From: Candidatus Vogelbacteria bacterium CG10_big_fil_rev_8_21_14_0_10_51_16
GTDB lineage: Bacteria; Patescibacteriota; Minisyncoccia; Phycocordibacterales; JACRKE01
DNA: 42,811 nucleotides
Direction: 5' to 3'
Assembly: GCA_002774795.1 (NCBI GenBank)
Contig: PCYI01000019.1
Location: forward strand, 65,480-108,290
The position numbers and the translations under genes are program-made. How positions within the stretch are numbered: the stretch's first letter is position 1; every line of letters begins with the position of its first letter. Positions 5,006 to 40,619 of the stretch are shown one piece after another. The notes below the pieces were generated by a model. That model saw only the letters and a program-made list of their open reading frames with translations, ran no database searches and was not told where the DNA came from.

Positions 5006-5072
5006 GAATCTGGAATGAAGAATCTTGAATTTGGATTTACGCATCATTCTAGATTCCAGATTCAAGATTTCA
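5006..5072. repeat. Intergenic hairpin made of GAATCT/GGAAT words
   Basis: Left arm GAATCTGGAATGAAGAATCTTGAATTTGGA. Right arm TCTAGATTCCAGATTCAAGATTTC is its imperfect reverse complement. Confidence 0.5.
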
Positions 5073-7740: not shown

Positions 7741-7815
7741 GGAATTTTAGCTTAAGTATATTGGAATCTTGCCTAGACGTTCTGGGTATAGATGCTATCT
7801 ATTGGTTTCTAATTT

Positions 7816-7933
7816 GAGACTGTAGAAAAACTATTTTTCTACAGTCTCACCCCGTCGAATGACGGGGTCACCCTGATTTTTTCTTGATAAGTGTTGGTAC
7901 AAAAACTCACTTTTTTTGTTTTTCTACAGTCTC
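7816..7933. repeat. Repeat-rich spacer between scpA and scpB: a perfect 33-nt palindrome, a 20-nt GC palindrome and a third half-site copy
   Basis: GAGACTGTAGAAAAACTATTTTTCTACAGTCTC (7816-7848), ACCCCGTCGAATGACGGGGT (7849-7868) and TTTTTCTACAGTCTC again at 7919-7933. Confidence 0.7.
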
Positions 7934-11547: not shown

Positions 11548-11694
11548 ATCGCCCCGACCAAGCCTAAACAAAAAAAACACCAGTTGCCTGATGTGCTTTT
11601 TGTGTGAGTCGATTGAAGGGGGTACCTCCTTTCGCGTATCGACTCGGGACGCGCCACCGGTGGGGTGGACTTGATTCACGGCTGACCGGCCGAC

Positions 11695-12018
11695 TTAGTC
11701 GTTGCCGTGGGCGATAGTGTTCAGGCGGCGGCGCATGGCTTTCTCTTCGAGTTTGAGAGCTGCTTCCTTGATTGCGTCGCTGTTGCAGGACTCGGCGAGG
11801 AGACAGAGTTCGTGGTTGTAGGTGAATTCGCCGAGGATCTTGCTCAGGAACGCACATGCTACACCGATTGCCTGTATTCGGCTGATACCAGTTTCCGTTT
11901 CGAGTTCTCTTGCCCCGTCACCTACGGCCTTGTTGAGCGTGAGCAAGGCAGGGGCACTCACTCTCTCGACGATCACCTTGATGGCCTCTTGCTTGTATTG
12001 GGTGTCCTCCGATATCAT
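11695..12018 (-). CDS. Hypothetical protein, 107 aa, predicted soluble and helical (cassette 1, gene 4)
   Basis: AAAGGAG lies 4 nt upstream of the ATG. The start overlaps the upstream stop as ATGA. The longer 202-aa track ORF is an out-of-frame overlap with the upstream gene and was trimmed. Confidence 0.55.
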   Translation of the reverse strand: MISEDTQYKQEAIKVIVERVSAPALLTLNKAVGDGARELETETGISRIQAIGVACAFLSKILGEFTYNHELCLLAESCNSDAIKEAALKLEEKAMRRRLNTIAHGND

Positions 12019-12377
12019 TTCACTCCTTTCCGCCAGAGGCGGGGGTAAGGGTACTTGTCCGGCGGCGGGACCAGCGACCCGAAGTCGCACAGGAATCCCT
12101 TCTTCCAGAAGGTGAGCCGATGCCACACCGGCCGGTCTTCGCCCTGGAGCGACTTCGCATATGCCCACCTGTAGTAGTTTTCGTAGCCGAATGTGACCGG
12201 GCCGCCGCTCGAATGGATGAAGTCCATCAGGTCGAGCGAGCGGACGACAGTCTCCGCGAACTCGGAGCATTGGCCCCAAGCGCGCAGTTGGTCGTTTCCC
12301 CACGAACTCGCGAGGAACAGCGCCACGATGATGGGGGTTATGGCGGCTATGCTCGCCGTCCGTTTCAGCTCGTACAT
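12015..12377 (-). CDS. Hypothetical protein, 120 aa, with N-terminal hydrophobic anchor or signal (cassette 1, gene 3)
   Basis: GGAAGGAG lies 5 nt upstream of the ATG. The N-terminus IAAITPIIVALFLASSW is hydrophobic. The rest is rich in W, Y and P. Confidence 0.6.
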   Translation of the reverse strand: MYELKRTASIAAITPIIVALFLASSWGNDQLRAWGQCSEFAETVVRSLDLMDFIHSSGGPVTFGYENYYRWAYAKSLQGEDRPVWHRLTFWKKGFLCDFGSLVPPPDKYPYPRLWRKGVK

Positions 12378-12447
12378 CTTTTCTCCTTCCGTCAGCCGGG
12401 CGGTCTGGCCTCCCGGCGGGTTGGGGTAGTGGCTGTGGGGCGTGCGA

Positions 12448-13065
12448 CTACTCGCTCCCGTCGACTGTGCGGCGGCTGATGTCTACGAACGCACCCGAGA
12501 ATGTAATCCCTGTCATAGAACTGATTTCGCCGTAGTACTTAACTTGCCCTTCAAGCGGACCGAGCTCTGTTTCCTGCTCCGCTTTGGCGACGAGCACCTT
12601 CACGAATGCGACAAGACGAGCCAGCTCGATGGGAGTTATGGAGTACCCATCTCCCTTGTATACCACGAAGACTCCGGAGCCGACGCCTTTGAATTTCCAC
12701 GGGCCGAGTTCGAAGTTGCACTGGGGCTTGGAGATGTCGGACGCCATCTCCTTCATGTTCTCGGCGATGGCGCCGAGGGCACGCGGGAGAGTCTCCTTGT
12801 CGTTCAGTGCCTTGGCCACGGCCTCGTGGCCGTGAGGGGTGGCGGGTTGTGCGGTGCCCGCCGTTCCGTCCTGATTGCCGGAGCCGACAGTCATGAGGAA
12901 TGCCAAGGTTCCTGCAAGAACTAATAGCAGGAAGACCAGCCCTATGGCTAGATACGCGATGTCTCCAATCCTGTTTCGATACTTTCTCACGAGTGCTCCT
13001 TTCTGTTTCCGCCAGGGGCGGGTGTTTGGGTTCTCGTCGCGGGAGTTTTCACACATGCTGAACAT
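12448..13065 (-). CDS. Hypothetical single-pass membrane protein, about 205 aa (cassette 1, gene 2)
   Basis: Basic N-terminus, then TM segment IAYLAIGLVFLLLVLAGTLAFLMTV, then a 130-aa domain. Start placed at the ATG at 13065. AAAGGAGAGG lies upstream, but the 16-nt spacing is long, so the start is uncertain. Confidence 0.5.
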   Translation of the reverse strand: MFSMCENSRDENPNTRPWRKQKGALVRKYRNRIGDIAYLAIGLVFLLLVLAGTLAFLMTVGSGNQDGTAGTAQPATPHGHEAVAKALNDKETLPRALGAIAENMKEMASDISKPQCNFELGPWKFKGVGSGVFVVYKGDGYSITPIELARLVAFVKVLVAKAEQETELGPLEGQVKYYGEISSMTGITFSGAFVDISRRTVDGSE

Positions 13066-13468
13066 CCCGTGGTCGAAGTTTCCTCTCCTTTTCTCGCGGC
13101 GGGTAGGTGGCGTCGCCCGGGGCGGCGCCAATGAAGCGCACTCGGCCCTCGACCTCTTTTGGTGAGGGTATGGCTACGCTTAGGTTACTCTTCAGTAAGT
13201 CATCGAGTACTTTACCGATGGCCGTGGCCAGCAGTTCCGTGGCTTTGGCGTCAGACCTCGTGTCGGAATAGAAGAGGTCATCCACCTCGAATAGCACCGG
13301 CTCGGTAGGAAAAGGATAGACCTCGGAGACGAAGCGCACGGTGACCTGCTCTTCGGTAACCTGGAGGACCTCTACATTCGCGACCGCCCGCTTGATATTC
13401 TTTTGCGCGAGGTATACCTCTGTTCGGTTCAGGAATTGCGTGAGTCCATACACCTTCACCGTGAACAT
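13049..13468 (-). CDS. Hypothetical protein, 139 aa, soluble (cassette 1, gene 1)
   Basis: AAAGGAGAG lies 6 nt upstream of the ATG at 13468 (MFTVKVYGL). Third codon positions are rich in G and C. Confidence 0.55.
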   Translation of the reverse strand: MFTVKVYGLTQFLNRTEVYLAQKNIKRAVANVEVLQVTEEQVTVRFVSEVYPFPTEPVLFEVDDLFYSDTRSDAKATELLATAIGKVLDDLLKSNLSVAIPSPKEVEGRVRFIGAAPGDATYPPREKERKLRPRDVQHV

Positions 13469-13725
13469 GTTGTGCTCTCCTTTCGGCCGTATGGGCCGGT
13501 TCCGGTTGAGTTTCCAGTCCAACTAAATTGTCAAGGCCAGACCGTCAAGAAACAGGCATCGAGGCCTTGCCTCTAAATGCAACAGGAAGGAGGGCTTCTT
13601 TTTTCTGACAGTCTAGTGTGGCTAAGCTAGTAATATTAAATCACATTAGTAGCACACATGCAAAGGGTGTAGCGCCACTACTTATGAGGCCGAAATATGG
13701 TTTTTCGTCGTGGAGATGAAATGTC

Positions 13726-15891: not shown

Positions 15892-16566
15892 TCATAGGTC
15901 TCTTATCTTTTCCATCAGTCGATGGGCGACCAGGCGATGGTCTTCGAGGGTGTAGACAGTTTTCTCTTGAATTAGGTCACAAAGGGCAAGAGGCTTTCCA
16001 AATGTGAGACTCATGCTGAGGCGCCAGGTAAAAAACTTGCCTGCGCTAAATGGTCCAGAGTGTCTTAGGCGCACAGGAATGATAGTCGCTCCCGCCTCTG
16101 CCGCCAGGTATGAAACGCCTGGCTTTGGTGGTGGATAAAGAGCGGCCCTCCGAAGCATTCCCTCTGGAAAGATGCACACGTTTTTTCTTTTTTGTAAAAG
16201 ACGAAGGTGGTGAGCGAGTGTTTTTGATAAGTCTTGCTGTCCGATTAGCGCGGGGTACGCACCCCACGCCTTAAAGATAGAGCCCCCGGCGATAAACGCC
16301 CATGGTCCAAGGTGCTTGTATTCAGAAGCGGGTAAGGAGACAAAGAAAAGTGGCAAAACATTCGAAAAAAAAGGCAAGGCAGAAGCAATGAAAATAGGAT
16401 CTAACTCCCACGCGTGGTTACTCGCAAATATAATCCCCGCCTTCCTCCGCTTTAGGAGAAGAACATTGCCTACCCCACTTACTCGATAGTGTAGAAATAT
16501 AAAAAACAGGACCCTTATTGGAAGCCACACAAGACGCTGAAGAAGTTCGGTGATATAGATCAGCAT
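15892..16566 (-). CDS. plsC: 1-acyl-sn-glycerol-3-phosphate acyltransferase family protein
   Basis: 224 aa. NHAWELDP (HX4D-type block) and IFPEG motif, with an N-terminal hydrophobic segment. Confidence 0.75.
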   Translation of the reverse strand: MLIYITELLQRLVWLPIRVLFFIFLHYRVSGVGNVLLLKRRKAGIIFASNHAWELDPIFIASALPFFSNVLPLFFVSLPASEYKHLGPWAFIAGGSIFKAWGAYPALIGQQDLSKTLAHHLRLLQKRKNVCIFPEGMLRRAALYPPPKPGVSYLAAEAGATIIPVRLRHSGPFSAGKFFTWRLSMSLTFGKPLALCDLIQEKTVYTLEDHRLVAHRLMEKIRDL

Positions 16567-16611: not shown

Positions 16612-16815
16612 GTTAACCCCTCACACCTCTCACGACTCGCAAGTGTTATCCCGTTGGAGAACGGCCCGCCGGCCATTGCCTAAGCACAGCGATGGCGGGC
16701 AGGGATCCAGGTTCAACCAGGGGCTGGATCCCTGCCCGCCGCAGGCACGCCGGCCGGAGCTTACCCCGTACCGGATACGGGGCCAGGATGACATACTTGG
16801 GGTGTGATGGGTTAC
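16612..16815. repeat. Nested palindromic (MITE-like) element, copy B, the longest version
   Basis: Terminal inverted repeats GTTAACCCCTCACACC and GGTGTGATGGGTTAC. Central GGGATCCAGGTTCAACC..GGATCCC hairpin plus extra GC-rich nested palindromes. Confidence 0.7.
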
Positions 16816-20794: not shown

Positions 20795-20996
20795 GACGAA
20801 ACATCGCTCCGGCCGAGCAAGCGTCTAATAAACGCAAAGCAGTTTGCGTTTATTAGCGCTTGCGTCACAACTCTCGGCTCGTCGACACTCGCCTCGGTCG
20901 CGACCCCGCCTCGCGGTTTCGTCTGCTGACGAAATATCGCTCCGGCCGAGCAAGCGTCTAATGAACGCAAAGCAGTTTGCGTTTATTAGCGCTTGC
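20795..20996. repeat. Two direct copies of a 69-bp unit (20795-20863 and 20928-20996), each folding into a hairpin with a stem of about 20 bp
   Basis: GACGAAA(C/T)ATCGCTCCGGCCGAGCAAGCGTCTAAT(A/G)AACGCAAAGCAGTTTGCGTTTATTAGCGCTTGC occurs twice. The second copy overlaps the last codons of rpsI. Confidence 0.8.
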
Positions 20997-27130: not shown

Positions 27131-28249
27131 CTACTGCCTAGCTTTCATTATACCAGAAAATATGCTTGCAAGCATGATGTAGGGGTCTCTTGTCGCGTCT
27201 CCGTTGTGTCGACAGAATGTAGACATTGCTTCAGAGGTTAGGAAGCGTACGTCGAAACCAAGGGATTGGTTTGCTTGCATTGACGCAAAAAGCGTTCTAA
27301 GGACCGGATCGGCGAGGACAAGAAGGGGGATGCGTGATAAATCTGGCACCCCTTCTCTTTTCGTCAGGAAGTTATGCAGGCTCTTTTTTACATGGGCAAT
27401 GGGACGATCAGAGTTTCGCAATATATCTTTGTCCCAGTCTACAGCTAAACGTTCCAGTTTGGTCTTTGCTAGTCCGGGACTAAGCGCGAGTTCCCTTCCA
27501 ATGGCGCGAATGAGATGGTTGCCCCCAAGCGGAGCAGACTCTACGCAACGTATTGCCCCGTCGTACACAGAGACCATCTCTGCCACTTCCCCACCCCACT
27601 CTAAGTAACGAAAGTTCTCCAGATTCATTGCGTGCCTAATTGCGGTTGTGGCAGCAAAAGGAAAGGTGTGGAAAAGTACGGGGCGTTCGTGAAAAACCGG
27701 CTCTAGAGCGGCCCGCAAGGCCTCGTCTGTTTGCTGATCTATAAGGCTGACAAATACCGTACCAGAGATAGTGTCCGCACGTTTTCCTAGGGGATACTGG
27801 ACGCGATATCCATTTATGCGAACATCGTCTAGTGTCGCTTCGAGAACAATGCCCCTCTTTTGCTCAATTACAAAAAGCTTCTTGGCCTCTTCAAGCAAGC
27901 TGTCTATTAACTTCTTTGTGACAATGGTGCTATCTAGATTCTCTCGGGTGATGGTTTTCGCACTGCTCACCGCAAGAAGTGGAGAGATGGTGGCAATGAT
28001 GCGGTCTGGTGGGGGCAAACCTAAGCGCACCAAGCTCTCTGCGGAGGTACGCAGTGATTTCGTAGCGGATTTAAGGTAGCGTTTGGGCTCAAAAGAGTCT
28101 TGAAAAACAATAGCTTCGCGGGCTGTGTGTAGGATGACCGGTAAATTATCAGCCGGATGCGTGACGCGCGCGCCAATTACACGCGAACTACCTATGTCTA
28201 AAAGAAGTGTGCTTCGAGGGCTTGTTTGCTTGCGTGAAAAGAGCGACAT
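27131..28249 (-). CDS. Actin-fold ATPase-like protein (PilM/FtsA-like)
   Basis: 372 aa. N-terminal LLLDIGSSRVIGARV phosphate-1-like motif, later WGGEVAEMVSVYDG and PLGGNHLIRAIG blocks in actin-fold order. Confidence 0.55.
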   Translation of the reverse strand: MSLFSRKQTSPRSTLLLDIGSSRVIGARVTHPADNLPVILHTAREAIVFQDSFEPKRYLKSATKSLRTSAESLVRLGLPPPDRIIATISPLLAVSSAKTITRENLDSTIVTKKLIDSLLEEAKKLFVIEQKRGIVLEATLDDVRINGYRVQYPLGKRADTISGTVFVSLIDQQTDEALRAALEPVFHERPVLFHTFPFAATTAIRHAMNLENFRYLEWGGEVAEMVSVYDGAIRCVESAPLGGNHLIRAIGRELALSPGLAKTKLERLAVDWDKDILRNSDRPIAHVKKSLHNFLTKREGVPDLSRIPLLVLADPVLRTLFASMQANQSLGFDVRFLTSEAMSTFCRHNGDATRDPYIMLASIFSGIMKARQ

Positions 28250-28299: not shown

Positions 28300-30207
28300 C
28301 TAATGAGTGTCAGTCACTTTTGCAAGACTTGCTTTTATGCGACGAACTCCTGCCGCTACCGCCTCTTCTTTGATTATTTTAAATACGCCACCTCGCTCAA
28401 TCTCCTCGGTGTTGGTTACATGTGGGCCACCACAGTACTCAATGGAAAAGGCCTTCGCGATCTTCGGGTCGTCGGCTGTTGCGTCTTTGGGTCCGACCGA
28501 ATAGACAGACACCATGTCTGGGTAGTCGGCGTTAAACTCATGCTCTGCGCCAAATTGCTCCGCCTCCTCTTTTTTCATTATCGTCTTTGTTACCGGTAAG
28601 CGGGCACTTATCTGCTCGTTCACGATCTCCTCCACTCGCCTTTTTTCTTCATCAGTCATCTTATGTGGACTTGCGAAATCGATGCGGAGGCGCTCGGCCG
28701 TGATATTTGAGCCACGCTGGTGTACTTCCGGCCCCAAGACCATCTGCAAGGCCTTCAAGAGGATGTGGTGGGTGGTGTGGTAGCGCACCGTTTGCTCGGA
28801 GTGGTCGGCCAGTCCCCCCTTAAACTTCTGCCCAGCACCGGCCCGCGAAAGATCCTGGTGCGCTTTCATGGCTTCCTCATACCCTGTCCTATCGACAGTC
28901 ATGTCCTGTTCACGAGCAAGCTCTTCGGTAATCTCCACAGGGAAACCGTATGTTGTAAACAAAACAAAGGCATCTTGCCCAGAAACGGTTGTGCCCGAAA
29001 GTTGCTGAAAGTGCTTTAGGCCCCGAGCGATCGTCTCGCGGAATTTTGTTTCCTCATCAGCGATTGTGCTGACGATGCTATCTTGCTTGGCAAGAACATA
29101 ATCGTACACACCAGCAAACGGCGCGAGTGCAAAGGGAGCAATCTCGTGTAGCGTTCCAGCCGGGAGCCCAAGGACATCTGCGTAGCGCACCGCGCGACGA
29201 ATGAGGCGACGGACAAAGTAGCCCTGTTCGCTATTGCTTGGGAGGATCGAGTCACCGATCATTTGCGTCGCACCACGAAGATGGTCGGCAATAATGCGCA
29301 TTGCCTTTTCGTTCCCAACATAGGGCTTACCTGAGCGACGTTCAAGTTCTTGCATGACGCCCTGGAAAAGATCGGTACGAAAGACATCCGGAGAATCTAG
29401 CGCGGCTGCGTAAATGCGTTCAAGACCGCCACCGAAGTCGATGTTTGCTTTTGGAAGTTTTACAAAACCATGTGCGGTTTTGCGATACTCCATAAACACA
29501 TTGTTGCCGATTTCCATAAAGCGCCCACAATCGCAGTTAACGTGGCAGTTCGCTCCCCACTTTGGGTCGTGTGGTGTGCTGAAGTCATAAAACATTTCGG
29601 AGTCGGGTCCCCCAGGCTCACCGACGGGCATGTTGGCGGGGACACCCGCGCGACTCCACCAATTTTTCTTTGCTTCGTAGGAAAAGATGCGAGCATCACC
29701 CATGCCTTTTGTGTACCCATCCGCATCGTTGCCGACGTCCATGAACTTTGCCTCAATCCCCTTTTTTTTAAAAAGATCCTGCCAGAGAATAACGGCTGTC
29801 TCGTCTTTGGGCACACCGATGGTAGGGTCGCCAATAAAGACGCTGACATACAGACGCTCTGGATCGATACCAAGCACATCAATCAAGAACTCGAACATCC
29901 ATTCGACCTGCTCCTTACGTCCATAGTCGCCGAGCGACCAGTTTCCCAGCATTTCGAAAAACGTCGTGTGGCGATTGTCGCCGATCTCTTCAATATCCTC
30001 AGCACGAAAACATCGCTGGCTGTCCACGAGACGTGTTCCTTTAGGGTGCGCCTCACCCAGAAGGTAAGGAATCATCGGCTGCATGCCCGATCCAGTAAAA
30101 AGCGTGGTCGGGTCGTTTTCCGGCACGATAGGGGCAGACGGAATAACCGCGTGGCCGCGCTCGCGGAAAAAGTCTAGGTACTTTTGGCGTATTTCTTTGG
30201 AGGTCAT
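28300..30207 (-). CDS. alaS: Alanyl-tRNA synthetase, short form lacking the C-terminal C-Ala domain
   Basis: 635 aa. N-terminus MTSKEIRQKYLDFFRERGHAVIPSAPIVPENDPTTLFTGSGMQ. Editing-domain HTTHHIL (HxxxH) and CGGPHV (CxxxH) motifs. Confidence 0.93.
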   Translation of the reverse strand: MTSKEIRQKYLDFFRERGHAVIPSAPIVPENDPTTLFTGSGMQPMIPYLLGEAHPKGTRLVDSQRCFRAEDIEEIGDNRHTTFFEMLGNWSLGDYGRKEQVEWMFEFLIDVLGIDPERLYVSVFIGDPTIGVPKDETAVILWQDLFKKKGIEAKFMDVGNDADGYTKGMGDARIFSYEAKKNWWSRAGVPANMPVGEPGGPDSEMFYDFSTPHDPKWGANCHVNCDCGRFMEIGNNVFMEYRKTAHGFVKLPKANIDFGGGLERIYAAALDSPDVFRTDLFQGVMQELERRSGKPYVGNEKAMRIIADHLRGATQMIGDSILPSNSEQGYFVRRLIRRAVRYADVLGLPAGTLHEIAPFALAPFAGVYDYVLAKQDSIVSTIADEETKFRETIARGLKHFQQLSGTTVSGQDAFVLFTTYGFPVEITEELAREQDMTVDRTGYEEAMKAHQDLSRAGAGQKFKGGLADHSEQTVRYHTTHHILLKALQMVLGPEVHQRGSNITAERLRIDFASPHKMTDEEKRRVEEIVNEQISARLPVTKTIMKKEEAEQFGAEHEFNADYPDMVSVYSVGPKDATADDPKIAKAFSIEYCGGPHVTNTEEIERGGVFKIIKEEAVAAGVRRIKASLAKVTDTH

Positions 30208-30312
30208 GTGATTATCCTAGCGTACTTGCTCTTAAAAATGAAGTATAATTTGATTGCGGGCAGTTATTTTTTAATGCTTCCGCTACGTTTTGGTCCTCGC
30301 TGGTATCCTCTA

Positions 30313-30350
30313 CCCAACGGCTCAACGACGAGAGCCGTTGAGCCGTTGGG
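30313..30350. repeat. Near-perfect palindrome with 14-bp arms between alaS and cassette 2
   Basis: CCCAACGGCTCAAC gacgagagcc GTTGAGCCGTTGGG. Confidence 0.75.
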
Positions 30351-30502
30351 TAATGAGACAAGCCTCCCACGATATTCCGCTTGACTTGCTTCAAGCCACA
30401 CCTCACTCCTTGATTCCTTTGGTTACGGTGGAAGCAAAAGTATGGTTTTATGGAAATCGGCTACAGGTCTATCACAAATTACGAATTGGAAGGAGGAAGG
30501 CA

Positions 30503-30826
30503 GTGGCTGGTGAAATTGTCGTAACTTTGAACGAGGGAGCTAGGATGCCCTCTCTTCGAGTGATTCAGCGCCTTCTTGGTGATTATTACAAGGAGTTAGC
30601 CAAGGTGACTCGCCCGAAGAAGAGAAAAGGAGTGGTGTCGTGTAAGCTCCACAAGACCCCTTCGATGCCAATCGTTAGGGCTTCGGCGATCGACCTGTCC
30701 AGATGGCTTACTCGTGGCTATGAGATTTTGTTGAATAACCACGAGAGGTACATCCTATTCTCCACCGAGGTAAGCGACCCATGCACGAGGGCGACCGCCC
30801 TTGGTTTTGCTCGTTTTCTATGCTAG
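30503..30826 (+). CDS. Hypothetical protein, about 107 aa (cassette 2, gene 1); alternative start ATG at 30545
   Basis: GGAAGGAGGAAGG lies just upstream of the GTG at 30503. GAGGGAG lies 5 nt upstream of the ATG at 30545. The 5' part of the 178-aa track ORF crosses a palindrome and looks non-coding. Confidence 0.45.
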   Translation: MAGEIVVTLNEGARMPSLRVIQRLLGDYYKELAKVTRPKKRKGVVSCKLHKTPSMPIVRASAIDLSRWLTRGYEILLNNHERYILFSTEVSDPCTRATALGFARFLC

Positions 30827-30864
30827 TGTGTTTTCGCAGGAAATGCGACACTGGAGGAGTGTAG

Positions 30865-31074
30865 ATGAGGCGAACGACGGGAAGCTGTCTAATAACGCTC
30901 GTGGCCGGGGTGCTCGGAGGAGCGAGCTTTTTGCTCCTTCTCCTTGCGCTCTTGTCTCGGGCACCGAACCAAGAACCGTTCACAAACCTGATTGTCGCGC
31001 TCCGCTCTTGGGGCGTGTTCTGGGGCAGCCTCGGCTGTGTGAGCGCCACGGCGCTCGCGTTCGTCGAACTGTGA
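30865..31074 (+). CDS. Hypothetical small membrane protein, 69 aa, two predicted TM helices (cassette 2, gene 2)
   Basis: GGAGGAG lies 5 nt upstream of the ATG. Hydrophobic stretches are LITLVAGVLGGASFLLLLLALL and WGVFWGSLGCVSATALAFV. Confidence 0.6.
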   Translation: MRRTTGSCLITLVAGVLGGASFLLLLLALLSRAPNQEPFTNLIVALRSWGVFWGSLGCVSATALAFVEL

Positions 31075-31087
31075 TGAGGAGGCAGGA

Positions 31088-31312
31088 ATGATTCCGAAAA
31101 GGTGCTTCATGGTCTCAATGGCCTATTTCATTTTCAACGCATGGTTCGGCCTCTACGCACACGATGTCATCGGACACCCTGCGCCTGGGGTCTGCCCGAA
31201 ACTGCTCGATGGCCACTGCGATTTCTCGTACTTGGCAATGGTCGGAATGATGATGGCGGCCCTTTGGATGCTCATGGACATCAGGCTACTTGGCCGGGAG
31301 GTGAAGTCGTGA
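31088..31312 (+). CDS. Hypothetical small membrane protein, 74 aa, two predicted TM helices (cassette 2, gene 3)
   Basis: GAGGAGG lies 5 nt upstream of the ATG. Hydrophobic stretches are FMVSMAYFIFNAWFGLYA and YLAMVGMMMAALWMLM. The loop is rich in Cys and His. Confidence 0.6.
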   Translation: MIPKRCFMVSMAYFIFNAWFGLYAHDVIGHPAPGVCPKLLDGHCDFSYLAMVGMMMAALWMLMDIRLLGREVKS

Positions 31313-31341
31313 TGACTGATGTTCGCTGAAGGCTGACGAGG

Positions 31342-31542
31342 TTGCGCTTGCGCTACATGGCTGTACGTTGGATCGGGGATGAGCCCGCCAACATGAGCCT
31401 GTCGGAACTGTCGGCGAAGCTGGCCGAAATCGGCCGGCGGCCACTTGCGAACTTCACCGCAGGGCGAGGTGTTGCTTCGGTCGAGCTGGCCTACTACATG
31501 CTCGAGAACGAGCTCAAGGTGCGACGCATACTCGCGCTTTAG
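31342..31542 (+). CDS. Hypothetical protein, 66 aa (cassette 2, gene 4), start uncertain (TTG at 31342 or ATG at 31357)
   Basis: Open frame in the cassette orientation. There is only a weak GAAGG 9 nt upstream of the TTG. Confidence 0.4.
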   Translation: MRLRYMAVRWIGDEPANMSLSELSAKLAEIGRRPLANFTAGRGVASVELAYYMLENELKVRRILAL

Positions 31543-31560
31543 CGAAAGGACGGAGGAACA

Positions 31561-31962
31561 ATGAAGGAGAAGGTTGAGATTTCGGACGCCTCAGAACTTT
31601 ACAGCCAGCTGGTGGAGGCCCTCTACTATCATCTGGTGGATAGAGTCGGGTTCAGGGCCCGGACAGGGCCCAATAGATACAGACAGGAAAATGTGTGGAA
31701 TAGCTTTGACGAAGCAGTCGCACTAGTGGTCAGTTCGGCCACTGAGGAATACGGAAAGAATCGTTTTGCGGAACCGTTGGCACGCAACTCGCGATTTCAG
31801 GTTCTCGGAACACAGAAGTGCGCCGAGGTCATGAACGACGCCATGCGCTCACTGGATTTTCTGGTCGGTACAGCGACACTCATCCGCAACGCCTCGCCCC
31901 ACAGGGCGGTGGCAATCGCCAAGGCCGTCGAAGGTGTACTCGGGATGCGAGTGGTGCGCTAG
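31561..31962 (+). CDS. Hypothetical protein, 133 aa, soluble (cassette 2, gene 5)
   Basis: GGAGG lies 4 nt upstream of the ATG. The gene is followed by a strong terminator. Confidence 0.6.
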   Translation: MKEKVEISDASELYSQLVEALYYHLVDRVGFRARTGPNRYRQENVWNSFDEAVALVVSSATEEYGKNRFAEPLARNSRFQVLGTQKCAEVMNDAMRSLDFLVGTATLIRNASPHRAVAIAKAVEGVLGMRVVR

Positions 31963-32017
31963 TAGCCACTGGGTTGTGTACCCAGCTTCCAACCAGATTC
32001 GATTTTTCAAGGTCGCG

Positions 32018-32082
32018 CGAAAGGCCGTGGTACAAGGTATACCACAAGGCCGACTACCGCGGCCTTTCGTATTTTCTTTTTT
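32018..32082 (+). terminator. Intrinsic terminator closing cassette 2
   Basis: CGAAAGGCCGTGGTA...TACCGCGGCCTTTCG gives a stem of about 15 bp, followed by TATTTTCTTTTTT. Confidence 0.7.
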
Positions 32083-32128
32083 GAATTCACAACTTAGCTG
32101 CGATAGCAGGTAAGTTGTGAATTAGTTT

Positions 32129-33430
32129 TTATGTGATAATGCCACCACCGAGGCACTCGTCACCCTTCTCGTTGTAAAGGACGAGCGACTGGCCAGAGGC
32201 CACCGATTCTTGCGGGTGGTCAAAAAGCACACGGAAACTGGAAGTTGGAAACTGGCTACTGGAGTAAGCACCTTGATTATCCGAGTTTCCGGTTTCCAGT
32301 TTCGAGATTCGGCATTTCTGAAGAGCTTGGCGGTAGCGGATTCTGGCTTGGTAAGTTTTTTTTGAATCTGGCGCTTCGCCCCGAGACCAGTTTGTCTGCT
32401 CAAGTACACAAGCCAGACTTGTGTACTCACTTGGACGCGCCGCGTCCAAGTGAGTTGCCGCATACTGGGTATGAGTGTCGGATGTTGGATGTTCGGCACT
32501 TTCCCTGTGTGCGACAACTAATTGATTCTTTTCTAGGTCTTTAGCTACTACATAGTAGGGACTGTCTGTTGGGGTTTTCTTGGTGATAGTAAAGCCGCGG
32601 CGCTCGCCGATGGTGTAGAAAGTGACGCCTTCGTGGTGGCCTATTACCTCTCCTTTCTCGTTCACCACTTCACCGGGCACTTCTTTGATGTAATGTTTCA
32701 AAAACTCCTTCATGTCGAGCTTGCCTAGAAAGCACACTCCTTGCGAGTCTTTCTTTTCAGCCACCGACAGGCCAAATCGCCGCGCCTCGTCGCGCACTTG
32801 CGGCTTAGTGAGATGCCCGATGGGAAAGAGGGTACGGGAGAGTTGTGCTTGGGTGAGCGTCCAGAGGAAGTAGGATTGGTCTTTTGCGGCGTCTACACCA
32901 CAAAGGAGGGCGTAGGGCGTAGGGCGTAGGGCGTAGGAACTCTGAGTCTGGATCCCGGCCTGCGCCGGGATGACAGAATTCCTGAATTCTGAGTCATTTG
33001 GAGTTTTGTGTTCTTTGTGATTTGTGTTTTGCCGTACTCGGCTGTAGTGTCCCGTGGCGATAAAATCGGCTTCCATTGCGACGGACCTTTTCAAGAACGC
33101 GTCAAACTTCACAAACTTGTTACACATGACGTCTGGGTTCGGGACTCGGCCTCGGCGGTACTCATCGATCATGTAGTCGACCACGTGCTGTTTGTACTCT
33201 TGGGTAAAGTCGAAGGTGTGGAAAGGAATCCCCAAGTGGGCGGCCACGCGTATAGCATCGCGCCTTTCTTCCGGCCACGCGCAAGGCAACCAGTCTGGCG
33301 ACCAGACCTTCATAAAGATGCCTGTCACTTCATAGCCCACTTCTTTAAGCAGGGCAGCCGAGACGGCGGAGTCCACTCCCCCAGACAAAGCCACGAAAAC
33401 ACGTGGCTTTGTCTGGGGGACAATTGACAT
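32129..33430 (-). CDS. mnmA: tRNA 2-thiouridine(34) synthase MnmA carrying several in-frame repeat-derived insertions
   Basis: PP-loop VALSGGVDSAV, ATGHYSR, KDQSYFLW, RIRYRQ and C-terminal SGQSLVLY..CLGGGII blocks. Start moved to the ATG at 33430 (MSIVPQTKPRVF); the upstream track codons translate CAATTGACA repeat DNA. Confidence 0.88.
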   Translation of the reverse strand: MSIVPQTKPRVFVALSGGVDSAVSAALLKEVGYEVTGIFMKVWSPDWLPCAWPEERRDAIRVAAHLGIPFHTFDFTQEYKQHVVDYMIDEYRRGRVPNPDVMCNKFVKFDAFLKRSVAMEADFIATGHYSRVRQNTNHKEHKTPNDSEFRNSVIPAQAGIQTQSSYALRPTPYALLCGVDAAKDQSYFLWTLTQAQLSRTLFPIGHLTKPQVRDEARRFGLSVAEKKDSQGVCFLGKLDMKEFLKHYIKEVPGEVVNEKGEVIGHHEGVTFYTIGERRGFTITKKTPTDSPYYVVAKDLEKNQLVVAHRESAEHPTSDTHTQYAATHLDAARPSEYTSLACVLEQTNWSRGEAPDSKKTYQARIRYRQALQKCRISKLETGNSDNQGAYSSSQFPTSSFRVLFDHPQESVASGQSLVLYNEKGDECLGGGIIT

Positions 33431-33570
33431 TTGACAATTGACATTTGACTTTATGTTCATAACTCATAGAGTCTACACGTGGAACTGTTTTTGTCCATTT
33501 GGCATCCGTGAACAAATTACGAAACTGGATTGAGCCCTCGGTCAATTGTCAGTTGTTAGTTGTCAATTGT
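33419..33570. repeat. Inverted CAATTGACA-word repeats flanking the mnmA 5' region
   Basis: GACAATTGACATTTGACAATTGACATTTGAC (33419-33449), opposed by GTCAATTGTCAGTTGTTAGTTGTCAATTGT (33541-33570). Confidence 0.7.
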
Positions 33571-33588
33571 GCGCAACAAACAACCTCA

Positions 33589-34662
33589 CTAAAGGTGAAG
33601 TTGTTTGTTGCGCTTGTGTTCATCAAAGTCGATGGCATAGTGGAAGCCGCCATCCTTGTCGGAAAGATAGAACAGATACGGCGACTTTTCGGGGCGTAGA
33701 GCCGATTCGATGGCTGCAAGTCCGGGATTGCCTATTGGACCTGCCGGCAGTCCCGCATAACGATAGGTGTTGTATGGTGAGTCTGTGTTAAGGTCGTCTT
33801 CGGTGAGCTCATCAGAACGCTTGCCGAGAAGGTATAAAAAGACGGCGTCTACCTGAAGAGGTATATCTTGGTCGAGTCGCTTCCAAAGAATGCCGGAAAC
33901 AAGGGTGCGAGAGTCGGCATCACCCGCCTCTTTTTCTATAAGCGAAGCCATGGTGACGACATCTCCAAGGTCATGACCGGAGGCTTCAATTTCACGCGCG
34001 AGGGCGCTTAAGCGCCCCGTAAAATTTTGACGCATGCGCTTGATAACATCCTCGGGAGTCTCTCTGGGTGAGAGAAAGTAGGTATCGGGAAAGAGGTACC
34101 CTTCGTGCTCGCGAGCGAGCGAGAAGAAAAGTGCGCGGTTAAAGTCAGGGAGCTTTTCTTCGAGAATGTCCGCAATCTCCCTGTTGCTACTTCCCTCCGG
34201 TATGGTAACTCGCACTGCGGTGATTCCCGAGACGCCATTCACTAGACGAGAGATAACGGTGGGTGTCCGAATGGGCTCAGTAAAAATGTAGTCACCGGAG
34301 AGGAGGCGGGTGTCGTTCCTGGATAGGCGAAGAACGGCGCGAAAAAACATCGATGAGCGGATGAATCCCTCATCATGAAGACGCTCACCTATTTGGCGGA
34401 CACTCTCCCCCTCATGGACTCGAAAAATGTTATTGACGGCGAACCCTTTTGGTGGGGATATAAGGAGTACCAGAAAAAGTGTGCCACCCGCCACGAGCGC
34501 CATAAAGATAGCAACAACGACATTTATCTTCTGCAACGGGCCAGTTCGTCTAGATAAATCACTTTCTTGCTCGATCTGCCCAAGCTCATTCTCCTCTATG
34601 GTCATCGGCCCGTCGTCTAGGCCGCCGCCCTCTTCTTCTTTGTTTGTAAGGTGTTTAATCAT
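33589..34662 (-). CDS. mltG: Endolytic murein transglycosylase MltG (YceG-like)
   Basis: 357 aa. N-terminal TM segment, then the YceG pattern FTEPIRTP...IPEG...EHEGYLFPDTY...ASLIEKEA...PYNTY...GLPAGPIGNPG. Confidence 0.88.
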   Translation of the reverse strand: MIKHLTNKEEEGGGLDDGPMTIEENELGQIEQESDLSRRTGPLQKINVVVAIFMALVAGGTLFLVLLISPPKGFAVNNIFRVHEGESVRQIGERLHDEGFIRSSMFFRAVLRLSRNDTRLLSGDYIFTEPIRTPTVISRLVNGVSGITAVRVTIPEGSSNREIADILEEKLPDFNRALFFSLAREHEGYLFPDTYFLSPRETPEDVIKRMRQNFTGRLSALAREIEASGHDLGDVVTMASLIEKEAGDADSRTLVSGILWKRLDQDIPLQVDAVFLYLLGKRSDELTEDDLNTDSPYNTYRYAGLPAGPIGNPGLAAIESALRPEKSPYLFYLSDKDGGFHYAIDFDEHKRNKQLHL

Positions 34663-37160: not shown

Positions 37161-37282
37161 AACCCCCCCAAACCTCTGACGTCTCTAGAGTATCATTCCG
37201 TTGCAGAACGGGATCCAGGTTCAACCCTAGCCTGGATCCCGTTCTGCAACGGAATGACATACTTAGGGTGTGAGGGGTTACC
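37161..37282. mobile_element. Nested palindromic MITE-like element, copy C (minimal version), flanked by a 7-bp direct repeat
   Basis: Near-perfect palindrome CATTCCGTTGCAGAACGGGATCCAGG..CCTGGATCCCGTTCTGCAACGGAATG inside the termini AACCCCCCCAAACC and GGTGTGAGGGGTTACC. ATGCAAG occurs at 37152-37158 and again at 37283-37289. Confidence 0.5.
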
Positions 37283-37294
37283 ATGCAAGTCTTG

Positions 37295-40165
37295 TCAACC
37301 TGTCACTATGTTTATTAGCTTATTTGGGATGTAGATTACTTTTGTGACAGTACGTCCCTCAAGCCACTTCTGCATCTTTGGGCGAGCGAGGGCCTGCTCC
37401 CTAGCGGACGTTTCATCCAGCTCTTCTTTGGTGATAAAGGTGTCGCGGCTTTTGCCGTCTATCTGCACCGCGATCACATGCTCGTCCGACACCAGTTTGG
37501 CGGGGTCGTAGACGGGCCAGGAAGACCGGTGAACAGAGTCCGTATTCCCAAGCGCCTGCCACAACTCTTCAGCCATATGAGGGGCGAAAGGTGCCAGCAC
37601 TCTCAATAAAGCCATATAGGTTGACCTGGAAATAGTGCCCATTTTTTCGACTCCATTTACCAAAATCATCATGGCAGAGACCGCTGTGTTGAATTTGAAT
37701 TCAGCAATGTCCTCCCCCGCCTTCTTTATTGTCTGATGGAGAAGGCGCTCTTCCTCTGGCGGAGTCTCGACATTCTTGACCTTCTCTCGCAGACTCCAGA
37801 TGCGTTCCAAAAATCTGCGCACTCCAATGATGCTTTTCGTTTGCCAAGCGATGGCGTTTTCAAATGGGCCCATAAACATCTCGTAGAGTCTCAAGCTGTC
37901 CGCTCCATAAGTAGAGACAATATCGTCGGGATTGATGACATTTCCCCAGCGCTTAGCCATCTTTCGTCCGTCCTCGGCGAGGATAAATCCAAGAAATTCC
38001 AGACGAGCAAACGGCTCGGAGGTGCTCACTACTCCTATGTCGTGCAGAAATTTGTGCCAAAAACGGGCATAAATCAGATGTCGAACGGCGTGGTCTCCAC
38101 CAACATATACATCGACGGGGCTCCAGTATTTCTCTGCTTGTGGCGATACAAGCTGCCTGTCGTTATGAGGATCCATAAAGCGTAGGTAGTACCAGCTGGA
38201 GCCCGCCCACTGCGGCATCGTGTTGGTCTCTCGCTTCCCTGCGCCTCCGCAACTCGGGCAGACGGTATTTACCCACTCATCAATATTGGCCAAGGGTGAC
38301 TCCCCTGTTCCAGTCGGTGCATACTGTTCCACCGGGGGCAAGGTGATGGGCAAGTCGTCTTCGCTCACGGGCACAACACCACAGAGTAAGCAATGAATGA
38401 CGGGAATGGGCTCACCCCAATAACGCTGGCGGGAAAACACCCAATCGCGAAGTTTGTAAGTCGTTTTTGGCGCGGCTTTGATTTTCTTGGCTATTGTCTC
38501 CCGCCCCTCCGCACTGGTAAGACCACTGAACTCGCCGGAATCACTCAACACTCCTTCTCCAGTATAGGCAACATCGCCTGATAGCATCATGCGTTCAATC
38601 CAGAGCGGCATTTCGGTGTTGACCATTGTACCGGGGACAAAATGGTTCGCGTCGACCCAGAGCACTTCATTGTCGTCGGCGATTTCGTCAGTGATGGGTA
38701 CCCTCTTGTGACCCACAAGCTCAAAGTACACCCCGGTAGTAACTGCCACCCGATTCTCGTCTTTGTGCTTGGCGAAGTACGAGGCCTGAACCGGCGCCCC
38801 CAGGGTGCGCTTGTAGATTAGATTAGTGTAGCCACTTTCTTCCTCCACCTCCCGTCTGGCGGCTGCGACCGGGTCTTCCCCATCTTCAATCCCGCCTATG
38901 ATAATTGTGTCCCAGCCCTGCTTTTCATTCCTCAAGATGAGGTATTTATTTTCTTTGGGGTCAAAGACTATCGCGTGGACATTTCTGCGTGTTTTTGATG
39001 GTTTGTCCACCCGAGGTGGATTTACCTTGTAATCAACAAGGTGGGGCATGACAACATGCTTTATGGGCAGACCATACTTTTTGGCAAAAGCGTGGTCTCG
39101 CTCGTCGTGGGCCGGTACTGCCATCACTGCCCCGGTGCCGTAGTGTCCAAGTACGTAGTCGGCCACCCAGACGGAAATCTCCTCGCCCGTGGCGGGATTA
39201 ATCGCCTTTATTCCCTTGAGCTCCACCCCTGTCTTCTCCTTATCCACGGATGTCCGCTCTATCTCTGTTTTCTTTTTGCAGTCATCCAGATATTGTTGCA
39301 CCTCTTTGGAGTTTTGTGCTTTGTGCTTTGTGCTTTCTACAAAGGGGTTCTCCGGCGCCACAACCAGATAGGTGGCCCCATAAATGGTATCAAGGCGCGT
39401 TGTGAACACCTTTATGCTTTTGTGCTCCGCGCTTTGTGCTTTGTGCTTTGTGGAGTTTGCCAGAGTAAATTCCACTTCGTGTCCTTCGCTCCTCCCTATC
39501 CAATTCCGTTGAGCCGTCTTGATGGAGTCCGGCCAGTCAAGGAGGTCTAAATCCTTAATCAAACGGTCTGCATAGTCGGTAATCTTGAGCACCCACTGGC
39601 GCATGGGCTTCTTCTCCGCTTCGCTGTCACATCTCTCGCACCGGCCTCCGTCGAGGTCTTCATTTGCGAGGCCCGTCTGGCACGATGGGCACCAGTTTAT
39701 CGGCTCGTGTGATTCGAATGCCAGACCTTTCTCAAGCAGTTTTAGGAAAATCCACTGGGTCCATTTATAGTACGCTGGGTCTGTCGTATTTATCTCCCGT
39801 GACCAATCGTAGTCAAAGCCGATGATAGAAAGTTGTTCTTTGAAGCGAGCGATATTCTTTTTCACAGCGGCGCTTGGATGCACTTTATTTTTGATGGCGA
39901 AGTTTTCGGCGGGCAGGCCAAAGGCGTCCCAACCCATGGGGTGCAAGACGTTAAATCCGTTCATCCGCTTAAAGCGCGAGTAGATGTCTGAGGCTATGTA
40001 CCCCTTTGGATGCCCCACATGGAGGCCTTCGCCGGAAGGGTACGGAAACATATCGAGTACATAGTGTTTTGGCTTGGAAGATGTGTCTTCAGTTTTGTAG
40101 ACCTGATCCTTTTCCCACTGCTCCTGCCACTTCTCTTCTATTTTTTTATGGTCGTATGCTTCCAT
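37295..40165 (-). CDS. leuS: Leucyl-tRNA synthetase with a Nudix-box-containing insertion and short repeat-derived insertions
   Basis: 956 aa. PYPSGEGLHVGHPKGY (HIGH), editing-domain TTRLDTIYGATYLVVAPE and GTGAVMAVPAHDERD, KMAKR (KMSKS-type), plus an internal GGIEDGEDPVAAARREVEEESGY. Confidence 0.93.
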   Translation of the reverse strand: MEAYDHKKIEEKWQEQWEKDQVYKTEDTSSKPKHYVLDMFPYPSGEGLHVGHPKGYIASDIYSRFKRMNGFNVLHPMGWDAFGLPAENFAIKNKVHPSAAVKKNIARFKEQLSIIGFDYDWSREINTTDPAYYKWTQWIFLKLLEKGLAFESHEPINWCPSCQTGLANEDLDGGRCERCDSEAEKKPMRQWVLKITDYADRLIKDLDLLDWPDSIKTAQRNWIGRSEGHEVEFTLANSTKHKAQSAEHKSIKVFTTRLDTIYGATYLVVAPENPFVESTKHKAQNSKEVQQYLDDCKKKTEIERTSVDKEKTGVELKGIKAINPATGEEISVWVADYVLGHYGTGAVMAVPAHDERDHAFAKKYGLPIKHVVMPHLVDYKVNPPRVDKPSKTRRNVHAIVFDPKENKYLILRNEKQGWDTIIIGGIEDGEDPVAAARREVEEESGYTNLIYKRTLGAPVQASYFAKHKDENRVAVTTGVYFELVGHKRVPITDEIADDNEVLWVDANHFVPGTMVNTEMPLWIERMMLSGDVAYTGEGVLSDSGEFSGLTSAEGRETIAKKIKAAPKTTYKLRDWVFSRQRYWGEPIPVIHCLLCGVVPVSEDDLPITLPPVEQYAPTGTGESPLANIDEWVNTVCPSCGGAGKRETNTMPQWAGSSWYYLRFMDPHNDRQLVSPQAEKYWSPVDVYVGGDHAVRHLIYARFWHKFLHDIGVVSTSEPFARLEFLGFILAEDGRKMAKRWGNVINPDDIVSTYGADSLRLYEMFMGPFENAIAWQTKSIIGVRRFLERIWSLREKVKNVETPPEEERLLHQTIKKAGEDIAEFKFNTAVSAMMILVNGVEKMGTISRSTYMALLRVLAPFAPHMAEELWQALGNTDSVHRSSWPVYDPAKLVSDEHVIAVQIDGKSRDTFITKEELDETSAREQALARPKMQKWLEGRTVTKVIYIPNKLINIVTG

Positions 40166-40286
40166 TGATATTATAACTTATCTAGTCTCTCCACAATACA
40201 ATTTTATGCTTGAATAGGCAAACCTTTTGTTGGTGGTTGTGCTATGCTGTCCATAGGATAGTAGCGCAATTGAAAGGATGTGCGAA

Positions 40287-40619
40287 ATGCGCAAAGAAGA
40301 TTTTAGAGTCGTCACGACTCCGTATGTTGAGGTTGTGGTCCGAAGAGGAGTGGGATCGGGTCTCCTGCTGGAGCTCGAGCCGAACCGCCCTGACATCGTC
40401 GGCTTCTTTACAGAGATCCTCAGAGAGCGTCGTGGGGAAAGTACGGAAAACTCCGAGCACGTGTTGATGCCCGGGTGCCAACACGGTACATTTAGAATCT
40501 TCCGAGATGGCACTGTCCAGTGCGACCCGGAAGTCAGGCACGACTTCGTGGTCGCCCTGGCACGGCGCTGGAGGCGATCTCGAGAAGAGTTAGACAGACG
40601 CAACGGGACGTCAGGGTAA
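40287..40619 (+). CDS. Hypothetical protein, about 110 aa (cassette 3); alternative start ATG at 40278
   Basis: GAAAGGA lies 8 nt upstream of the ATG at 40287 (MRKEDFRVV). The frame is GC-rich and divergent from leuS. The opposite-strand ORF has a poorer composition, rich in S, R and T. Confidence 0.45.
   Translation: MRKEDFRVVTTPYVEVVVRRGVGSGLLLELEPNRPDIVGFFTEILRERRGESTENSEHVLMPGCQHGTFRIFRDGTVQCDPEVRHDFVVALARRWRRSREELDRRNGTSG

Follow-up and report, generated by a model that had tools for sequence, protein, structure and literature searches.

The 1.8-kb block between alaS and mnmA, in which five small open reading frames (ORFs A to E) occupy the plus strand at 30503-31962, is probably a foreign five-gene operon, acquired horizontally, accessory and tied to no known system. 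Horizontal acquisition is regarded as the likeliest origin because the ribosome-binding sites, the terminator and the base composition of the block are alien to the host. Since no donor or homolog has been found, the transfer is read from composition and signals only. An earlier note had described a discrete, insertion-like cassette of SD-led small genes, a description that is strengthened by the contrast with the host in SD sites, terminator and composition.

Within the window, i.e., the whole stretch of 42,811 nucleotides that was analysed, the block is flanked by two host genes on the minus strand, alaS (28300-30207), which encodes an AlaRS of 635 aa, and mnmA (32129-33460). The former looks leaderless, because it has no SD and carries GATAAT 3 nt before its ATG. 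Apart from the block, the window is almost uniformly minus-strand, and the block is indeed its sole multi-gene run on the plus strand, as had been claimed. The five plus-strand ORFs listed previously were all recovered at the same coordinates; they are separated by spacers of only 13-38 nt, and a terminator lies directly past the last of them. With GGAGG-type motifs inside the usual range of 4-9 nt before the starts, short spacers and a hairpin followed by a U-tract, the block has the make-up of an SD-led operon closed by an intrinsic terminator. GGAGG-type SD sites had been proposed for four of the five ORFs, and both the strings and the spacings are correct, at 4-7 nt from the start, while the fifth ORF, D, has an SD-like GAGG instead.

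ORF A (30503-30826) is an ORFan whose product has 107 aa when read from GTG 30503, with the SD GGAAGGAGG 6 nt upstream, or 93 aa when read from ATG 30545, with GAGGGAG 5 nt upstream; extensions to 157 aa and 178 aa look over-called, since the GC3 signal begins only near 30545. The product is soluble and basic, with a computed pI of 9.95 for the 107-aa form. ORF B (30865-31074; 69 aa), led by GGAGGAG 5 nt before ATG 30865, encodes a putative N-in/C-in membrane hairpin, and ORF C (31088-31312; 74 aa), an ORFan led by GAGGAGG 5 nt before ATG 31088, has a His/Cys-containing loop between two hydrophobic segments. On the Kyte-Doolittle scale, the hydrophobic 17-residue segments reach 2.42 and 1.75 in B and 1.57 and 1.89 in C, which fits the two-TM hairpins suggested earlier for both proteins, the second segment of each being only moderately hydrophobic. 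The N-termini of B and C are basic, as is the C-terminus of C. The two are not paralogs, a relationship that the earlier note had wished to see checked, as BLASTP gives no alignment between them at E ≤ 100. ORF D (31348-31542), also an ORFan, has possible starts at TTG 31342, TTG 31348 (with GAGG 7 nt upstream) and ATG 31357, giving 61-66 aa; the starts chosen by gene callers lead to 61-aa or 64-aa products, and the 66-aa form is basic, with a computed pI of 9.8. The last ORFan, ORF E (31561-31962; 133 aa), has GGAGG 4 nt before ATG 31561, and an all-helical fold is predicted for it in a model of low confidence. AlphaFold2 run without an alignment reached a pLDDT of 52.9 for E and 40.6 for the 93-aa form of A, and both models were discarded as unusable; a Foldseek search with the discarded E model gave a best match at E = 1.1.

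The DNA of the block looks coding, because in 23 of 30 windows the GC-richest phase coincides with codon position 3, and this phase changes at every ORF border. GC3 of the five ORFs ranges from 0.59 to 0.74, compared with 0.52 in host genes, and a GC count reported earlier for 31381-31440 (41/60) is exact. GGAGG is clustered in the block, which holds seven of the 37 plus-strand copies, and in 2000 dinucleotide shuffles the GGAGG-led ORFs of at least 60 aa that share a strand without overlap never numbered more than three, compared with four in the block. All five genes were called by independent gene callers in 7 of 8 assemblies; in the one other assembly, the caller chose a minus-strand ORF of 73 aa over A and B in identical cassette DNA. 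The earlier note had allowed for ORFs having neither homologs nor coding potential: homologs are in fact absent, and coding potential is present, as judged from the GC3 phase.

The intrinsic terminator at 32018-32082 on the plus strand, noted before as a strong one with a 15-bp stem and a T-tract, was borne out by hairpin analysis. Its stem of 15-16 bp, formed by 15-nt arms (32018-32032 and 32055-32069) that are 93% complementary and 22 nt apart, has z = -5.1 and is followed by TATTTTCTTTTTT. A second hairpin at 32084-32123, with 18-nt arms, lies directly 3' of the mnmA stop codon and carries no U-tract on the minus strand. At the other end, between the alaS promoter region and ORF A, there is a palindrome on both strands at 30311-30352, with perfect 17-nt arms (30311-30327 and 30336-30352) and an 8-nt loop; its z values are -7.6 on the plus strand and -9.8 on the minus strand, and neither strand has a U-tract. 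The earlier note was right to place a palindrome upstream of the block and understated it as 14-bp arms at 30313-30350. Its use as a cassette-specific boundary has to be given up, since many host genes are followed by long hairpins of this very style, likewise lacking a U-tract. The palindrome was also considered as a dispersed repeat, of which no second copy exists in the window, and as a member of an Rfam family, for which the palindrome and leader gave a single sub-threshold miRNA match that was taken as chance. The cassette transcript has a candidate -10 element in a host-type TATAAT hexamer at 30244-30249 on the plus strand, where the window contains just one further intergenic copy; a full sigma-70 consensus promoter was not found on the plus strand.

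The signals of the host genes are of another kind. Among 33 host genes, not one carries an SD-type motif of 5 nt at a distance of up to 25 nt from its start, and GGAG at a usable spacing occurs in a single one. Likewise, a U-tract on the host (minus) strand is missing from all ten intergenic hairpins checked, the two terminators being excluded. The trinucleotide delta* between block and host is 0.209, whereas 1.5-kb windows of the host average 0.122 (sd 0.020) with a maximum of 0.182. The RSCU correlation between host and cassette is 0.30, compared with a mean of 0.62 for subsets of host genes against the remaining host genes, and B and C have codon-usage scores of nearly zero relative to the host. 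Both composition and codon usage thus lie beyond the host range, as in an acquired islet. A second island in the window, at 11577-13481 on the minus strand, consists of four AGGAG-led ORFans of 139, 180, 120 and 107 aa; it is GC-rich and ends in a hairpin followed by T8, so that both islands close with a hairpin and a T-run. The two have codon usage in common (RSCU correlation 0.63, compared with 0.25 between the second island and the host) and no sequence similarity; a search for boundary sequences common to both found none, and IMG/VR scans with two proteins of the second island gave no match.

The content of the mnmA-alaS junction differs among relatives. In the closest relative, L089, whose AlaRS is 72% identical, the gap is about 500 bp and holds a different SD-led ORFan of 125 aa, led by AAAGGAGG; in Saccharibacteria loci, mnmA and alaS are adjacent, and in other relatives they are separated by nuclease, UDG and peptidase genes that take up 2.6-8 kb. 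The short gap and the adjacency support the insertion-like reading of the earlier note. ORFs A to E are not encoded at the alaS loci of any of 160 relatives, and the block is accordingly missing from the same position in close relatives, as expected of an acquired islet, and is not conserved core DNA as far as the related alaS loci compared are concerned. A derivation of the cassette from the nuclease, UDG and peptidase genes of relatives, as a decayed remnant, was rejected, as tblastn returned noise only. The junctions are identical across 8 independent assemblies (JGI, ENA, Logan), which excludes a chimera. Identity among the 8 sibling contigs is 99.95% or higher, pointing to an almost clonal population, and the ORFs contain no substitution; the only polymorphism in the block is A/G at 30341, in the right arm of the palindrome. 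Within the strain, no contig with an empty site turned up, the cassette adjoining every copy of the exact AlaRS, and the block has been seen in this one strain only.

The five products had been said to match no recognised family, and nothing above noise was found for them in Pfam, PHROGs, PADLOC or NCBIfam. At E ≤ 1, B and C gave only a sub-threshold DUF2561 match, for C, in PHROGs, Pfam and NCBIfam, and no family of the PADLOC defence catalogue was matched by any of the five proteins. Searches of large libraries, of up to 5.8 billion proteins, covered A, C, D and E and gave no believable relative: a word-seeded search of 5.8 billion proteins with E, C and D returned self matches only, and a full HMMER search against 1.84 billion representatives, for which A was taken in its 157-aa form, returned only two internally repetitive proteins, which were rejected on reading as repeat-driven noise. 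IMG/VR scans with A, C and E yielded nothing, nor did blastn and tblastn against phage and plasmid collections, including 50,697 phage records, for the proteins tried; PDB sequence searches gave no match below E = 0.35. No donor lineage or homolog appeared in any library searched. As for mobile elements, there is no integrase or recombinase in the block or among the genes called between 21.5 and 42 kb, no transposase was found with the block, no tRNA genes occur in the window, and no att-type direct repeats bracket the block, the longest repeat near its borders being a 12-nt pair with a single mismatch, whose copies lie in the alaS promoter region (30209) and within mnmA (32274). A was considered as an integrase fragment on account of a weak NCBIfam tyrosine-recombinase match (E = 0.17), which had no Pfam or HMMER support. 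An IS200/IS605-type element with hairpin ends was likewise discarded, because the five proteins have no Pfam match to Y1_Tnp and E, by inspection, has no HUH motif.

Several other readings of the block have to be weighed against these observations. Several frames of GC-rich DNA can stay open over a long distance, and ORFs of 75-113 aa do overlap here; homologs are absent, the AlphaFold models are poor and the gene calls for A and B are inconsistent, all of which would suit spurious ORFs in a GC-rich non-coding spacer. This is nevertheless very improbable, as the SD-start-ORF arrangement did not arise in any shuffle, the GC3 phase keeps to each ORF and changes at the borders, and the spacers are tight with a terminator right past the last ORF. 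Somewhat less remote, though still improbable, is the proposal that the genes are native, fast-evolving and lineage-specific, their SD sites being kept as a special translation class. Small hypothetical proteins are abundant in CPR genomes, an SD-led ORFan occupies the same junction in the closest relative too, and no donor was found; however, composition and codon usage fall outside every host window and gene subset tested, the terminator is of a type unlike the host hairpins, and the block runs against the almost uniform minus-strand direction of the window.

A remnant of phage lysis or superinfection functions, with B and C as holin and antiholin or as membrane toxin and immunity protein and with A and D as small regulators, is hardly to be expected either. 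In its favour, B and C are small neighbours that each have two hydrophobic segments and a basic N-terminus, C being basic at its C-terminus too, A and D are small basic proteins, and an autonomous, terminator-closed unit of deviant composition recalls a phage moron. On the other hand, the proteins have no PHROGs, Pfam or PADLOC match, the block has no endolysin-type domain, the 10 kb on each side contain no further phage gene, no integrase and no att site, the phage records and IMG/VR returned zero matches for the proteins tried, and B and C are not paralogs; the holin/antiholin, small-toxin and immunity ideas of the earlier note therefore found no backing in family matches or in an accompanying endolysin. 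More weight, while still on the unlikely side, is given to dead passenger DNA, that is, an operon that was real in its donor and is an unexpressed fossil here, with no working promoter and with SD sites that are unreadable for SD-independent translation machinery. Such a fate would agree with the SD-less host genes, with the missing consensus promoter, with a composition that has not drifted towards that of the host, and with the lack of the anti-SD motif in many Parcubacteria, of whose 16S rRNAs only 48% were found to contain it (PMC9297842). It is opposed by the intactness of all five reading frames, the SD sites and the terminator, by the zero substitutions in the ORFs of 8 assemblies, although the population is almost clonal, by the host-type TATAAT upstream, and by the expectation that a reduced genome loses useless DNA.

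Under the favoured reading of a horizontally acquired operon, the region of about 30353-32083 would be a self-contained operon, A to E, that entered the genome of a Kaiserbacteria-like Patescibacterium between mnmA and alaS, a junction of varying content across the clade. The operon would have brought its own signals, namely GGAGG-type sites, a hairpin and U-tract terminator and GC-rich codon usage, and its products would be two unrelated small membrane-hairpin proteins (B and C) and three small, mostly basic soluble ones (A, D and E). Transcription might start from the host-type TATAAT at 30244 and run through the hairpin at 30311-30352. The donor was possibly of the same kind as that of the second island at 11.6-13.5 kb. 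It is a speculative extension that both islands came as fragments from one donor, either the bacterial host of the episymbiont or a mobile element of that host, into a recipient that has abandoned SD initiation and U-tract terminators. A membrane-directed accessory role of the type carried as mobile-element cargo (exclusion, immunity or small-toxin control) is doubtful at best.

By itself, the block adds one more to the strain-specific ORFan islets of CPR genomes; what makes it valuable is a clean internal contrast inside one 43-kb window. On the host side there are SD-less genes, TATAAT-proximal starts that look leaderless and U-tract-less hairpins, and on the other side two islands with canonical SD sites and terminators and with foreign codon usage in common. 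Through this contrast, recent gene flow into the reduced genome of a symbiont can be seen directly, and an SD in an SD-less background may serve as a simple flag by which acquired DNA is recognised in MAGs of Parcubacteria. Together with expression data, the contrast would also provide a test of foreign translation signals in a lineage that possibly has no anti-SD; in a host without one, the SD sites of the block would have no effect. Should a single donor be true, the islands would constitute a molecular fingerprint for finding the host of the symbiont, and a natural case of an expression-signal 'dialect' that the recipient may not read.

Known systems resemble the block to different extents. 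Like holin/antiholin cassettes, the block contains a pair of neighbouring small membrane proteins, B (69 aa) and C (74 aa), each of which has two hydrophobic segments and a charged N-terminus, C having a charged C-terminus as well; unlike such cassettes, the block has no endolysin, as A, D and E contain no such domain and the neighbours are alaS and mnmA, and B and C match no holin family, are mutually unrelated and have no phage context. Type I/II toxin-antitoxin and bacteriocin-immunity modules likewise place small membrane proteins beside small basic soluble proteins in one operon, whereas the block matches no toxin, antitoxin or immunity model in PADLOC, Pfam or NCBIfam, and its five products include, by inspection, no leader-peptide or bacteriocin-like sequence. 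In integron gene cassettes, small same-strand ORFans also have their own SD, and the 3' end likewise carries an imperfect inverted repeat, but the genes of the block are 13-38 nt apart with no attC between them, its 3' hairpins have, by inspection, no RYYYAAC and GTTRRRY cores, and no intI-like match occurs in the block and no integrase among the genes called at 21.5-42 kb. Phage morons are typically one or two genes; the block differs in comprising five, in residing in a cellular chromosome with no surrounding prophage, and in having a candidate promoter only. With morons and flexible genomic islets it shares a compact form with its own translation signals and terminator, a GC content and codon usage that differ from those of the surrounding genome, small ORFan cargo, and a position between two housekeeping genes at a junction whose content varies among relatives.

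The five plus-strand ORFs that fill the 1.9 kb separating alaS (28300-30207, minus strand) from mnmA (32129-33460, minus strand) constitute a real, well-delimited ORFan operon that was probably acquired horizontally. The ORFs described in the earlier note all exist, namely A (30503-30826), B (30865-31074), C (31088-31312), D (31348-31542) and E (31561-31962), and its Shine-Dalgarno (SD) strings and spacings, as well as the GC count of 41/60 for 31381-31440, were reproduced. In 2000 dinucleotide shuffles of the region, no strand ever carried four GGAGG-led ORFs that were non-overlapping and 60 aa or longer (shuffle maximum 3), and of the 37 GGAGG copies on the plus strand of the 42.8-kb window, 7 lie inside 1.1 kb of the cassette. 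In addition, ORF D has GAGG 7 nt upstream of TTG 31348, and ORF A has an alternative candidate start, ATG 30545, with GAGGGAG upstream. When GC was scored in 30 windows of 120 nt, the richest phase coincided with the third codon position of the ORF there in 23, and this phase shifts at the A/B, B/C and C/D borders. GC3 exceeds GC1, and GC1 exceeds GC2, in 5/5 ORFs, with GC3 of 0.59-0.74 versus 0.52 in host genes. Because the GC3 signal of A begins only near 30545, its 157-aa (NCBI) and 178-aa extensions over the upstream palindrome are probably over-calls. The same five genes were called in 7 of 8 independent assemblies; A and B are the weakest calls, because in the eighth, with the same cassette DNA, the gene caller took a minus-strand 73-aa ORF instead of both.

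The block is bounded exactly by two host-style hairpins, 30311-30352 and 32084-32123, the latter abutting the mnmA stop codon. The former is the palindrome reported previously upstream of A, whose arm size had been underestimated; its perfect 17-nt arms occupy 30311-30327 and 30336-30352. The proposed terminator is real, comprising 32018-32069 followed by TATTTTCTTTTTT (z = -5.1). Among 8 sibling contigs, the only polymorphism of the alaS-mnmA interval is A/G at 30341 (G in 4), in the right arm of the palindrome, where a U-G pair is kept in plus-strand RNA and lost in minus-strand RNA. A serious, if improbable, rival to a live operon is that the block is unexpressed passenger DNA, and no consensus promoter was detected for the cassette. 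A candidate is the host-type TATAAT at 30244-30249, which has just one other intergenic copy on the plus strand; a transcript initiated there could pass the 30311-30352 hairpin, cover A-E and stop at 32082.

The host genome belongs to the Patescibacteria (CPR) and is of Kaiserbacteria/Paceibacterota type, with AlaRS identities of 62-63% to the best species representatives and 72% to the best metagenome contig, L089, and nearly all genes in the window lie on the minus strand. Between leuS and the H+-PPase gene, two opposite-strand ORFs overlap, 40278-40619 (+; 110-113 aa) and 40178-40603 (-); gene callers choose the former, and neither has a Pfam match.

The main result is that the block is foreign to this host, as indicated by three independent signals: ribosome-binding sites, terminators and composition. 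None of the 33 minus-strand host genes of the window has an SD-type motif of 5 nt at a distance of 25 nt or less from its start, and TATAAT lies 5-10 nt before the start codon of three of them (15892-16566, 27131-28249 and 37295-40165), which suggests leaderless mRNAs. Published work that found the anti-SD motif in no more than 48% of Parcubacteria 16S rRNAs (PMC9297842) fits an SD-independent host, whose own 16S rRNA gene lies outside the window. Ten long intergenic hairpins, most of which immediately follow host genes, lack a U-tract when read on the host (minus) strand, and look like a way of marking gene ends that is particular to this host; long and often perfect examples 3' of minus-strand genes lie at 256-291, 5021-5069, 7815-7849, 16694-16740, 20825-20856, 32084-32123, 33571-33613 and 37171-37279. 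The cassette, in contrast, is closed by a canonical hairpin with a T-run behind it. Its trinucleotide delta* to the host (0.209) exceeds that of every 1.5-kb host window (mean 0.122, sd 0.020, maximum 0.182), and its RSCU values correlate with those of host genes at 0.30, versus 0.62 for host gene subsets.

Three palindromes (16694-16740, 37171-37279 and ~32950-32975) share the core GGGATCCAG / CTGGATCCC and may form a small dispersed palindromic repeat family. The third falls in mnmA, whose product carries three insertions relative to two relatives (32234-32310, 32425-32455 and ~32900-32990), every one coinciding with palindromic or repeat DNA; in one, GTCATCCCGGCGCAGGCCGGGATCCAG encodes '...VIPAQAGIQ...'. 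These insertions are reminiscent of palindromic elements that enter genes without breaking the reading frame. Towards its 5' end, mnmA contains another palindrome, perfect over 19 bp (33377-33420). Within the reading frame, a 7-nt tandem repeat (AGGGCGT) is present 4.4 times at 32907-32937; one unit fewer in the sibling assembly ERZ27293400 splits mnmA by frameshift into ORFs of 186 and 222 aa, so that either this housekeeping gene varies by strand slippage or the assembly is wrong here.

The cassette's three foreign properties, SD-led ORFs, a canonical terminator and deviant composition, recur in a second, minus-strand island at 11577-13481, where GC reaches 0.60. It encodes four AGGAG-led ORFans, 13468-13049 (139 aa), 12990-12448 (180 aa, N-terminal TM), 12377-12015 (120 aa, N-terminal TM) and 12018-11695 (107 aa), and ends in a hairpin plus T8 at 11594-11577. 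Its ORFans have no Pfam or PHROGs match and 1-2 members per 90% cluster. No protein or DNA similarity to the cassette was found, but codon usage of the two correlates at 0.63, the level of host genes among themselves, versus 0.25 between island and host, a hint of one donor.

A chimeric contig is ruled out because three pipelines yielded 8 assemblies with the same alaS-cassette-mnmA context, their identity being 99.95% or higher. None of 160 related alaS loci encodes any of the five proteins. Synteny is conserved on both sides (sig70-DUF8128-yceG-mnmA ... alaS-g429-S13-S11-S4-rpoA), and the mnmA-alaS interval is variable. An uninterrupted junction, which the earlier note suggested looking for in sibling genomes, occurs in loci labelled Saccharibacteria, where the two genes are adjacent. 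Most Kaiserbacteria-like genomes have 2.6-8 kb there; the set that recurs in L001, L003, L014 and other relatives comprises an ATP-cone and Mrr-type endonuclease fusion, a PD-(D/E)XK (Cas4-like) nuclease, UDG, and M13 or M16 peptidases. The whole window is free of such genes, and the cassette as their decayed copy was ruled out. In L089, the closest relative, the interval is only ~500 bp and holds a different ORFan (9539-9916, alaS strand, 125 aa), which is AAAGGAGG-led beside neighbours without SD motifs, lacks a Pfam match and belongs to a 90% cluster of 3 members. No integrase, transposase, tRNA, att-like direct repeats or terminal inverted repeats were found; the simplest inference is insertion by recombination within a variable intergenic spot.

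All five products are ORFans, and none could be placed in a Pfam, PHROGs, PADLOC or NCBIfam family. A 15-billion-protein collection holds the exact proteins only as the same sequences with other start calls, and a search of 5.8 billion clusters yielded no relative of C, D or E. A full HMMER pass with A over 1.84 billion representatives returned only two repeat proteins, taken as noise. The cassette proteins tried had no match in IMG/VR, phage and plasmid collections or PDB sequences, and AlphaFold models built without alignment were too poor for use (Foldseek E > 1). B and C, each with two hydrophobic segments, are not paralogs, contrary to one possibility raised earlier. The data support no more than a pair of small putative membrane hairpins together with three soluble proteins, also small, all having pI > 8.8, probably co-transcribed and mobile-element-like in style. 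Holin/antiholin, toxin and immunity roles, previously offered as speculation, are without positive evidence, and a lysis reading is without an endolysin; any conflict-related membrane role of this kind is unlikely.

More interesting than the probably acquired operon itself is that the expression signals of both islands clash with those of a CPR host lacking SD sites, together with a possible common donor. In kind, the cassette is a familiar one, a flexible genomic islet or moron-like unit.
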